Source: Escherichia coli
GTDB lineage: Bacteria > Pseudomonadota > Gammaproteobacteria > Enterobacterales > Enterobacteriaceae
Assembly (NCBI RefSeq): GCF_016026235.1
Contig: NZ_CP065613.1
Length of the DNA stretch: 64,000 nucleotides
Direction: 5' to 3' (one strand)
Of the stretch, positions 54,395-56,914 are shown piece after piece. Positions within the stretch are counted from its first letter, which is position 1. Each line of letters begins with the position of its first letter. The translations under genes and the position numbers were made by a program. A model generated the notes under the pieces. That model saw only the letters and a list, made by a program, of their open reading frames with translations, was not told the origin of the DNA and did no database searches.

Positions 54395-54820
54395 ATGAGC
54401 AACATTACCATTTATCACAACCCGGCCTGTGGCACGTCGCGTAATACGCTGGAGATGATCCGCAACAGCGGTACAGAACCGACCATTATCTATTATCTGG
54501 AAACCCCACCGACGCGCGATCAACTGGTCAAACTTATTGCCGATATGGGGATTACCGTACGCGCGCTGCTGCGTAAAAACGTCGAGCCGTATGAGGAACT
54601 GGGCCTTGCAGAAGATAAATTTACTGACGATCGGTTAATTGATTTTATGCTGCAACATCCTATCCTGATTAACCGTCCGATTGTGGTGACGCCGCTGGGA
54701 ACTCGCCTATGCCGCCCCTCGGAAGTGGTGCTGGAAATTCTGCCAGATGCGCAAAAAGGCGCGTTCTCCAAGGAAGATGGCGAGAAAGTGGTTGATGAAG
54801 CGGGTAAGCGGTTGAAATAA
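54395..54820 (+). CDS. arsC: Arsenate reductase ArsC (glutaredoxin-coupled)
   Basis: 141 aa MSNITIYHNPACGTSRNTLEMIRNSGTEPTIIYYLETPPTRD...; catalytic Cys-12 motif. Confidence 0.95.
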   Translation: MSNITIYHNPACGTSRNTLEMIRNSGTEPTIIYYLETPPTRDQLVKLIADMGITVRALLRKNVEPYEELGLAEDKFTDDRLIDFMLQHPILINRPIVVTPLGTRLCRPSEVVLEILPDAQKGAFSKEDGEKVVDEAGKRLK

Positions 54821-54867
54821 AGCGGCGATATCCACTGCCGATAGTTGGTAAAGTGCGCTTTGTTTAT

Positions 54868-54968
54868 GTCGGATGCGACGCTAACGCGTCTTATCCGATC
54901 TACAAAGTCATGAAAATTCAATAAATTGTATGTTATTTGTAGGCCTGACAGGCGTAGCGCATCAGGCG
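54868..54968. repeat. REP/BIME repeats downstream of arsC
   Basis: gtcggatgcgacgctaacgcgtcttatccgatctaca ... tgtaggcctgacaggcgtagcgcatcaggcg. Confidence 0.7.
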
Positions 54969-55444
54969 ATTTTGCTATTTACACATTACTCCCTGCGTGA
55001 GATTCCAATTATCGCGTCCAGCATGGTGTATCAGTGAGCTGCTTAGTTATCAGCGATACAGTGCAGCAGTTTAAAGACGTACTGGATTATGATTTATCAG
55101 TGCTTTACACAACAAATTATTCAATAATTATAAGATACCTTAACCCATTTTATTATTACACATCTAAAACATCACAAAAATATCATTTCACACACTATCG
55201 GAGAACATCATAACTTTTTAAAATGAGCGCTTTTTGATAGTTGTTAACGTTTTCCTTTACGATACTATCAATGCCCTTTTTTATACACAAATATTACCGG
55301 GTGGAGATAAAAGGGAAGTCAAAGGTAATTATATCAGGAAGATATGACGCATGATATTTATTGTGCGTAGAAGAAAATCCATTCCTGCTCTAATTATCCA
55401 ATTTAAAAATCTTAGCATAAAACAGATGATGAATAAGGAATGTT

Positions 55445-56668
55445 ATGTCAATTGACTTTACCCCAGGTATGATAAATACATATCACGGCGATATTTATAA
55501 CCGCACAACAGATACCGACAATGTTAAAACACCAGACACACCGATGTGGCCTTGTGATAATCGGGAAGAACAACAACCCATTAATTCCACATTCTCTGGA
55601 GAAGGATACAACCCTGAACAATATGATTTAGCGCGGCAACACCTCCCACAAATTTATGCGTGCCGCACGAACACCAAATATACAGATGCAGACTACTCAA
55701 AAGTTGTGGCTCAACTTGTAAGTCTTATTACTAACATTGAATCGATAAGTTCGACACCACTTACGCGGCAGGCACAGGAAATACTTAATCAAATTAATAA
55801 CATTAGATACGAAAAGAACAAAAGTGCTGAATGTCGAATCATTGTTGTCGCTAATCCTAAACCCGACAAGGCAATCATAACTAAAATTAGCGTAGAAGAG
55901 GGAATACCAGTAAGATTCAGTGTCCAAACCATGTTTTCAGATACTAATTTTATTGCTGAACAACGAGCTGACTTACCGACTAATATAAAAGATATTCAAA
56001 GCCTGTATCAAAAAATGACGAAGTTATATATTGAGCACAGTGAAAATAAAAACAGGATGAAAGTCTTTGCCGGAACCAACTTTATTGATTTCAATATGAC
56101 AGGACAGAACCTGTCCGGGTTCGTTCTAACCTTGTCAAGGTTTTATTTCGAAGATCTACTTAATATAAATTTCACTGACGCAAATTTAGGTGACACTATT
56201 TTTTCACATAAAGAACACCCTACCCCAAAATTATATAAAGACGAACAATATCTTGACAAACAAATCGAAGGTTTATTTTCAACATTATTAACCATTAATG
56301 ACAACTTTTTACGAGCAAAAGCGGAAATTGCTTCGACAATAATTAAATTTTTAGAGGCCAGGATAACCAATCTTTCATACAACGACATATTAAAATATCA
56401 GCAAGAATTCCAAAAACAATGTTATAAGCAAGTTAAAGCCTTTACGACACTCTCCCGATACAATAAAATTCAAACATGGGCAGAAATGTCTGAATATCAA
56501 TTCGAAGTATTTCAATACGAGACGCTTAACCCAAAAAAAATGTCACGCACGCCTTATTTAAAGAGGCCACTTTCTGATGAAAAAGATATAAATTATGGGG
56601 TGAAAATAGAAATACCATCTGGTAAAAGAATTCGCTTATCAAATCATTATCAGAATATAATACCATAA
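55445..56668 (+). CDS. yhiS: YhiS-like protein of unknown function, intact; central pentapeptide-repeat-like stretch
   Basis: 407-aa AT-rich ORF; segment [44 protein letters not shown] shows 5-residue periodicity; position between arsC and slp matches yhiS. Confidence 0.7.
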
Positions 56669-56914
56669 TATTGATTATTAGCACTTTATAATCATTGAAT
56701 AAAAATAGATTTTATGTAATTTTAAAACAAAGGGTTATATTATGGGGCGATGGATACTCATGCCACGCCCCAAAATAACGGAATTGAACTAAACAGAAGG
56801 GATATAAACATCAGACAGGTTTACGTTACTATCAGGCATATCGCCTCAGAATCAGATGAAAACTATAAAGAAATATCTATTATGGTTTTAATATTTGTTG
56901 ATAAGGATAGTAAC

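Follow-up and report, generated by a model that had tools for sequence, protein, structure and literature searches.

Intact yhiS of Escherichia coli: a repeatedly lost, deeply divergent gene with a predicted pentapeptide-repeat-like module

A 64,000-nucleotide stretch of Escherichia coli DNA (contig NZ_CP065613.1 of RefSeq assembly GCF_016026235.1; here designated the window) was found to carry an uninterrupted copy of yhiS, a gene which appears as a hypothetical protein or a pseudogene, with no domain annotation, in the sources searched. Its 407-amino-acid (aa) product contains ten consecutive pentads resembling those of pentapeptide-repeat proteins. Across complete genomes yhiS is dispensable and has been lost again and again, and where it is retained it is a protein-coding gene under purifying selection centred on the module with these pentads. 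The explanation that we favour, at about even odds, is that yhiS encodes a dispensable, normally silenced binding scaffold, its DNA bound by H-NS and StpA, around one pentapeptide-repeat module. The gene and the fold family were already known, and what is new is the module assignment and the population pattern. The latter is of more interest than the fold, yhiS being among the most divergent single-copy E. coli loci one could meet.

The yhiS open reading frame (ORF) occupies positions 55445–56668 (plus strand, as for all features below unless stated otherwise), from the ATG start to the stop codon inclusive, exactly where the original prediction, made from the sequence alone, had placed an intact 407-aa ORF. 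It was taken from the ORF list, and its frame is kept across alleles. A Shine-Dalgarno-like AAGGA (55435–55439), read from the sequence, stands 5 nucleotides (nt) ahead of the ATG. The gene order in the window is arsR-arsB-arsC, the yhiS ORF and slp-dctR, and arsC-yhiS-slp also occurs in FDAARGOS_943, in one K-12-type strain and in sequence type 131 (ST131), RefSeq annotating ‘hypothetical protein’ at this locus. The K-12 fragments align to nt 1–746 (94.6% nt identity) and nt 742–1224 (97.3%) of the ORF, and this identity, together with the position between arsC and slp, identifies the ORF as yhiS. A protein search with YhiS gave 136 matches of 62–100% identity, mostly 407 aa long, among them P0073, called ‘YhiS’ by UniRef. 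The closest complete genomes at the locus were FDAARGOS_943 (99.8–99.9%) and O157:H7 strains (99.0–99.2% nt identity). The gene is AT-rich, as had been claimed, with a G+C (GC) content of 35.1% (31.4% at third codon positions, GC3) compared with 50.7% for the whole window. It sits in a 2-kb AT-rich trough with arsC on one side and slp on the other, GC being 32–39% over 54800–57000 and about 50–55% in the arsB and chuA flanks.

The core of the protein, residues 206–255 (56060–56209), was delimited by periodicity and similarity searches. It consists of ten consecutive pentads, all ten with L, F or M at the central phase and six with N or D just before it, in line with the pentad consensus A(D/N)LXX with L/F central in register. 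The longest in-phase run obtained by shuffling was seven among 20,000 permutations of the whole protein and eight among 20,000 permutations of residues 151–300. As a run of ten was thus reached in none of the 40,000, the five-residue periodicity noticed in the original prediction is real. If a quadrilateral beta-helix forms, ten pentads would make about 2.5 turns. The Asn/Lys-rich low-complexity flanks described along with the periodicity were not recovered, since N+K amounts to 14–15% in both flanks and to 15.2% in the whole of YhiS, and the only two 15-residue segments with an entropy below 2.6 bits lie outside the flanks. The richness of YhiS in N, K, I and T is a general AT-codon bias.

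A profile built from 15 alleles was compared with all Protein Data Bank (PDB) sequences at expectation values (E) up to 10 and retrieved two chains only, 2f3l (Rfr32, E 0.006) and 3n90 (TL15, E 0.24), both alignments covering YhiS residues 202–254. An exhaustive phmmer search of YhiS against 1.84 billion cluster representatives returned a single full-length cluster, numerous fragments and, in addition, the long proteins P0150, P0158 and P0161. These three were the sole matches outside the family (library-wide E 1.3e-5 to 5.4e-4), and each matched YhiS residues 204–283 five to seven times. All are strong proteins of the Pentapeptide family PF00805 (E 1e-46 to 5e-80) that also contain domains of the PEP-CTERM, PATR or dockerin type, and their tandem unit of about 65–70 aa runs from ‘QLYSTxSYxDKDLxG’ through about nine pentads with GQ(N/D)L to the next QLYST. 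For the linker of this unit the Pfam matches include no model of its own. YhiS residues 193–277 (56021–56275; linker, pentads, linker), delimited from the module alignment and hhalign, resemble one such unit, both linkers included. Alignment of the YhiS profile with the module alignment by hhalign gave a probability of 95.1% (E 3e-8, columns 206–277), although the modules were picked from the phmmer matches, so that the two results are not fully independent. Several concordant lines, each modest, thus support a pentapeptide-repeat-like core as the best interpretation of a match that stays below the Pfam threshold.

The remainder of the protein offered few landmarks. The Kyte-Doolittle(19) hydropathy maximum across YhiS is 0.99, and there is no hydrophobic segment, hence no Sec signal or membrane helix. 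Scans against NCBIfam, PHROGs and PADLOC gave no match and Pfam gave only the sub-threshold Pentapeptide family, in agreement with the earlier statement that no enzymatic motif is recognisable. Cys73 and Cys326 are invariant in the 15 aligned alleles, with no recognisable context around either. YhiS would accordingly be pictured as a soluble, non-enzymatic 407-aa protein lacking a Sec signal and a membrane segment, the constrained core of which (about residues 181–300) would be one short module of the pentapeptide-repeat type, ten pentads long. Judged by analogy with pentapeptide-repeat domains elsewhere, the module would offer a partner protein a rigid surface for binding, and the variable parts on its N- and C-terminal sides would serve to tune or localise it. 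The gene, H-NS/StpA-bound in K-12 and repeatedly lost, would nevertheless persist in kept copies representing very old, recombining allelic lineages. Recognition of such a module gives the first structural handle on YhiS, with residues 181–300 as a defined fragment.

Selection on yhiS was assessed by the Nei-Gojobori method with seven intact alleles (21 pairs), giving nonsynonymous divergence (dN) of 0.005–0.21, synonymous divergence (dS) of 0.02–0.65 and dN/dS of 0.24–0.65 in every pair. The corresponding polymorphism ratio (pN/pS) was 0.47 overall for 14 alleles. Conservation among homologues had been named beforehand as a check on the repeats, and these, with the helix that follows, indeed form the most constrained part of the protein, residues 181–300 (55985–56344), with a sliding pN/pS of 0.17–0.37. 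This segment includes the repeat module and a near-invariant helix after the repeats, with the lowest residue entropy at residues 276–300. Peaks of pN/pS occur in residues 76–105 (1.29) and 331–360 (1.15). The frame of 407 or 410 codons is kept in 13 of 13 length-preserving alleles despite dS of up to 0.6.

The alleles are mosaic, their protein identity to the window copy ranging from 62 to 100%, and the divergence is confined to yhiS and its promoter. One example of a deep allele is the 410-aa form found in strain EC42405. For the same genome pairs the first 117 codons of slp, 247 bp downstream, gave dN 0 and dS 0.026–0.053, the dS of yhiS being 2–20 times that of slp. Nucleotide identity rises from 77–85% in yhiS to 99% within about 100 bp past the stop codon (divergence boundary, 56645–56915 in the window), and in the comparison of the window with L004–L010 it is 77–99% in yhiS and 99–100% just beyond the stop. 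This synonymous depth is beyond relaxed constraint alone, and old balanced lineages or imported alleles are therefore needed. Long-term balancing or diversifying selection, in which the module and its variable flanks engage a fast-evolving external partner, be it a host protein (YhiS then being a secreted ‘backbone’ effector) or a phage or competitor component, seems to us a rather doubtful account; if true, it would explain both a dS of up to 0.6 that ends at the stop codon beside slp and the repeated loss of the gene.

The 2-kb region was matched by 5,418 of 5,426 complete genomes, and in 1,091 of these less than 80% was covered. Genome comparison showed that ST131 O25b:H4 carries a 912-bp deletion (55824–56735) removing codons from about 127 to 407, and the same two-piece pattern with 54% coverage was seen in all five low-coverage genomes sampled. 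From the 4,365 genomes matching the yhiS ORF, 60 records were drawn at even steps. Of these, 29 had a frame-preserving length and 24 a frame-breaking length, while six were interrupted by an insertion sequence (IS1 in two, K-12-type IS5 in four) and one was a partial match. The 13 length-preserving alleles read individually were all intact, encoding 407 or 410 aa. A rough estimate for complete genomes, subject to database bias, is about 40% intact, 30% frameshifted, 8% interrupted by an insertion sequence and 20% deleted. The isolates with intact alleles were of clinical, poultry, dairy, mink, gull, bovine or seawater origin and the gene is truncated in typical O157:H7, so that intactness is not a mark of pathogens.

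The lesions are diverse. In K-12 the IS5 insertion point was located by fragment alignment at gene nt 742–746 (56186–56190), codons 248–249, inside the repeat core; the disruption, which the original prediction had stated correctly, agrees with published accounts (PMC11677980, PMC1174868). K-12 work cannot address yhiS because of this split. Allele comparison pointed to an A8 homopolymer (56533–56540) as a frameshift hotspot: in typical O157:H7 the tract (gene nt ~1089) is shorter by one A, reading CCCCAAAAAA compared with CCCCAAAAAAA in the intact O157 allele, and this 1-bp deletion replaces the last 36 residues to give a 371-aa product. Five of the six non-O157 frameshifted genomes read (L014–L018) have all lost 1 bp at gene nt 761 (56205), beside a T6 run, leading to a stop at or before codon 282; clusters of 281 aa (P0114, P0116, P0117) are listed. 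One of the five also has a nonsense mutation at codon 105 and another has a second deletion, and an additional T at gene nt 974 was found in one non-O157 frameshifted genome. The lesions of different lineages, comprising IS5, IS1, three or more distinct frameshifts, a nonsense codon and the 912-bp deletion, are of at least seven independent types.

Database annotation does not always reflect the state of the gene. RefSeq/PGAP tags the alleles of FDAARGOS_943 (L001 6446–7669), O157:H7 PV15-279 and ECA64 as ‘frameshifted’, but all translate unbroken over 407 codons. The tagged intact loci, L001 6446–7669, L004 601–1824 and L025 101–1324, correspond to 55445–56668 of the window. The tag likely arises because this allele group is represented by a reference protein, WP_001303709.1, which is itself the 371-aa O157 product shortened by the 1-bp deletion.

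The 624-bp AT-rich region between arsC and yhiS (54821–55444), delimited from the GC profile and the sequence, contains the presumed yhiS promoter and three weak sigma70-like sites at 55104–55263. In the H-NS section of PMC3661553, arsC/yhiS and insH11/slp are listed as promoter islands, and a 2026 preprint (bioRxiv 10.64898/2026.02.10.705075) places yhiS among the high-affinity StpA/H-NS sites. Overexpression of YdeO left yhiS unchanged, notwithstanding a YdeO site nearby. All these data on H-NS, StpA and YdeO come from K-12, where yhiS is broken; expression of yhiS in the strain studied here is probably low. The best sigma70-like match of the region (TTGTCA-18-TATAAT, 11/12) is on the minus strand at 56230–56259, antisense within yhiS, and this predicted site would be in keeping with the spurious promoters that AT-rich, H-NS-bound DNA typically shows within genes.

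Such observations are also what a decaying relic would produce, namely a silenced, horizontally acquired gene heading for loss, open here by chance and without function. Roughly 60% of complete genomes have a broken or deleted yhiS with the variety of lesions given above, the gene is bound by H-NS and StpA and did not respond to YdeO, and the literature search found no functional study of yhiS and no reported phenotype. Moreover, dN/dS is high by E. coli standards, at about 0.4–0.5, with two segments reaching 1.15–1.29. However, preservation of the 407- or 410-codon frame in 13 of 13 alleles of a gene with 35% GC and dS of up to 0.6 would not come about without selection, dN/dS is clearly below 1 in all 21 pairs, and the repeat module is selectively constrained. 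We consider the relic unlikely. A dispensable scaffold gene kept by selection in some lineages and lost in others remains our preferred explanation, and yhiS offers a compact test case of how H-NS-bound orphan genes are kept, exchanged and lost.

Less probable still is a type III substrate, a ‘backbone’ effector in the manner of EspX, NleL or SopA, with an unstructured N-terminal signal, a host-binding pentapeptide beta-helix and a helical C-terminal domain. The only hints are that some effectors also carry pentapeptide beta-helices and that the first 50 residues of YhiS contain no Leu and 48% S/T/N/P/I, a composition which, being a heuristic, is suggestive at most of a secretion signal. On the other hand, YhiS has no sequence similarity to NleL, to SopA or to the families of NCBIfam, Pfam or PHROGs. 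The PDB profile search (E up to 10) brought up neither NleL nor SopA, no such cluster appeared in the exhaustive phmmer search, and the C-terminal part of YhiS has about 150 residues compared with about 410 in NleL.

The distribution of yhiS bears on the same question. Every YhiS match named by organism came from E. coli or Shigella. When 100,044 species-representative genomes were scanned twice, with four peptide patterns, no yhiS copy emerged, these scans being pattern-based and returning no E. coli copy either; they fit a restriction of the gene to E. coli. A search of phages gave no copy. Three ‘plasmid’ matches proved to be E. coli chromosomes of 4.8–4.9 Mb filed as plasmids, leaving no plasmid copy. 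These PLSDB records (NZ_CP134663.1, NZ_CP141089.1 and NZ_OL790696.1; L020–L022) will give false ‘plasmid-borne’ matches for chromosomal genes. The apparent distant homologues P0160 (43%), P0128 (62%) and P0122 (71%) were rejected as fragments from indel-ridden E. coli assemblies with 95.7–97.3% DNA identity to the window. The gene is a taxonomically restricted orphan of E. coli and Shigella with a single chromosomal locus at the border of the acid fitness island, where an ‘unknown gene’ has been recorded in O157:H7 (PMC9729726). Absence of plasmid and phage copies argues further against an effector, and carriage of yhiS as a virulence or effector trait is not supported. The overall interpretation offered in the original prediction therefore stood as regards the identity of yhiS, its intactness and its pentapeptide-like core, while the pathogen and effector framing was not supported.

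Antagonistic coevolution, in which yhiS would be a single-gene anti-phage or competitor-interaction factor with deep alleles under balancing or diversifying selection, is improbable in our estimation. It draws on the sharp confinement of divergence to yhiS and its promoter (77–85% identity and dS 0.3–0.6 next to slp with dN 0 and dS 0.026–0.053), on the mosaic alleles, on a pattern of repeated loss like that of defence genes and on the two segments with pN/pS above 1. These last rest on few substitutions, and overall dN/dS is below 1. The PADLOC-DB defence-model scan of YhiS returned zero families at E up to 1, PHROGs gave no match either, and no defence gene adjoins the locus, the neighbours being ars, slp-dctR and chu. 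The same pattern would also follow, with no selection at all, if foreign alleles entered by recombination within the conserved flanks.

We regard it as comparably improbable that the periodicity reflects something other than the pentapeptide-repeat fold, such as an amphipathic or other beta-rich segment mimicking the motif in an AT-biased protein. Several observations do weigh against our reading. Pfam PF00805 (Pentapeptide, clan CL0505) matched YhiS with 11.6 bits (E 0.22), the gathering cut-off being 20.2 bits; it matched 14 of 15 alleles, with none above threshold in any allele (best E 0.037), and Pentapeptide_4 matched two of 15 (E 1.6). The scores of P0150, P0158 and P0161 are sums of several weak stretches of long tandem repeats. 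Several i-2 (inward-facing) pentad positions are atypical in being occupied by K, F, Q, F, E and I, residues that are bulky or charged, and residue variability did not differ between inward and outward positions in 93 full-length sequences (p 0.52). The AlphaFold2 model of full-length YhiS from the shallow 15-allele alignment had a mean predicted local distance difference test (pLDDT) score of 34 and was unusable; over the pentad region this family-only run gave pLDDT 25–31 and no beta-helix. The binding role, finally, is suggested purely by analogy.

When residues 180–292 were modelled from the family plus ten homologous modules, mean pLDDT was 55.8 (about 68–72 over the pentads), and beta bridges appeared at 5- and 20-residue spacing. 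This alignment-seeded model superposed at 2.0–2.2 Å on 55–62 residues of solved pentapeptide-repeat proteins. Its alignment already held true repeat proteins, so that it shows compatibility with the fold and is not independent proof, which likewise tells against our reading, as does the Foldseek search of the model against the PDB, where nothing was significant (best E 0.6). The sub-threshold Foldseek list consisted mostly of repeat proteins. A merely accidental periodicity is countered by the absence of ten in-phase L/F/M from the 40,000 shuffles, and by the fact that everything found to resemble YhiS in the PDB and among 1.84 billion proteins is a true repeat protein, with the register shared and the similarity reaching into both linkers. 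A beta-helix fold for the YhiS core, with which the modelling is compatible, may be proposed.

A DNA mimic of the Qnr/MfpA/McbG type, shielding topoisomerase from a poison, is very improbable: it shares the repeat family, and QnrB1, MfpA, AlbG, AhQnr and EfsQnr were among the weak structural matches of the sub-domain model, but YhiS has about 2.5 turns in 407 aa with unrelated flanks and no specific sequence similarity to Qnr or MfpA.

A few further features of the locus were recorded. Just after arsC, at 54867–54946, near-threshold Rfam matches to the REP-derived sRNA families ES036/CssrF (36.2 bits, gathering cut-off 37.6, E 5e-5) and naRNA4/CssrE (26 bits) are most likely ordinary repetitive extragenic palindromic (REP) or bacterial interspersed mosaic (BIME) elements; the Rfam scan gave no match inside yhiS. 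Upstream of about 55145 the strain alignment collapses (32–55% identity; window 54845–55145 compared with L007–L010), and in L007–L009 the gene upstream of yhiS is annotated ‘permease’ and not arsC. On its ars side the locus thus differs in structure from strain to strain. A 17-nt inverted repeat bracketing the divergent segment (55117–55133 and 56686–56702; 16 of 17 positions complementary) was considered as a mobile-element end and rejected, an equally good repeat occurring in 12.5% of shuffles and the left arm being missing or different in other alleles. The mechanical slp ORF (56750–57481) begins 55 codons 5' of the annotated start (56915, MNMTKG...), and this extension, lying within AT-rich intergenic DNA, is probably not translated. 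After dctR come chuS and chuA for haem uptake (58228–61287) in the window and likewise in O157:H7, ST131 and FDAARGOS_943, while the K-12-type genome has yhiD-hdeBA-hdeD at that place; the window therefore derives from a chu-positive lineage. In FDAARGOS_943 (L001 12972–14001) the annotation gives shuT as frameshifted and hutW with an internal stop.

Compared with known copies and systems, the window gene is the same gene at the same locus as the K-12 pseudogene (with insH11), uninterrupted here and split by IS5 there. It belongs to the allele group of O157:H7 (99.1–99.2% nt identity), the reference form of which has 371 aa, but like O157:H7 PV15-279 and FDAARGOS_943 it retains all 407 aa of the frame. 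With pentapeptide-repeat proteins such as Rfr32 (2f3l), TL15 (3n90), Np275 (2j8i) and Alr5209 (6omx) the YhiS core shares tandem pentads, the central L/F and the preceding N/D, but it has only ten pentads, a Pfam match below the cut-off and atypical inward positions, and its module lies within a 407-aa protein, with alpha/beta and helical regions unrelated to it on either side. P0150, P0158 and P0161 (803–1075 aa) share the unit of linker and GQ(N/D)L pentads, with 30–32% identity over the matched stretches and 24–31% between their excised modules and a 113-residue YhiS segment; they carry four to seven tandem units together with export or anchoring domains, whereas YhiS has a single unit and lacks an export signal. 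The beta-helix of NleL (EspX7) and SopA comprises about 200 residues compared with 50 in YhiS, which has no detectable sequence similarity to them and no counterpart of their HECT-like bilobed domain. MfpA and Qnr are built almost wholly of repeats, with about 8–10 turns, and are dimeric mimics of B-DNA. YhiS belongs with Qnr, MfpA and AlbG to the same repeat family, and its repeats are limited to residues 206–255 of 407.

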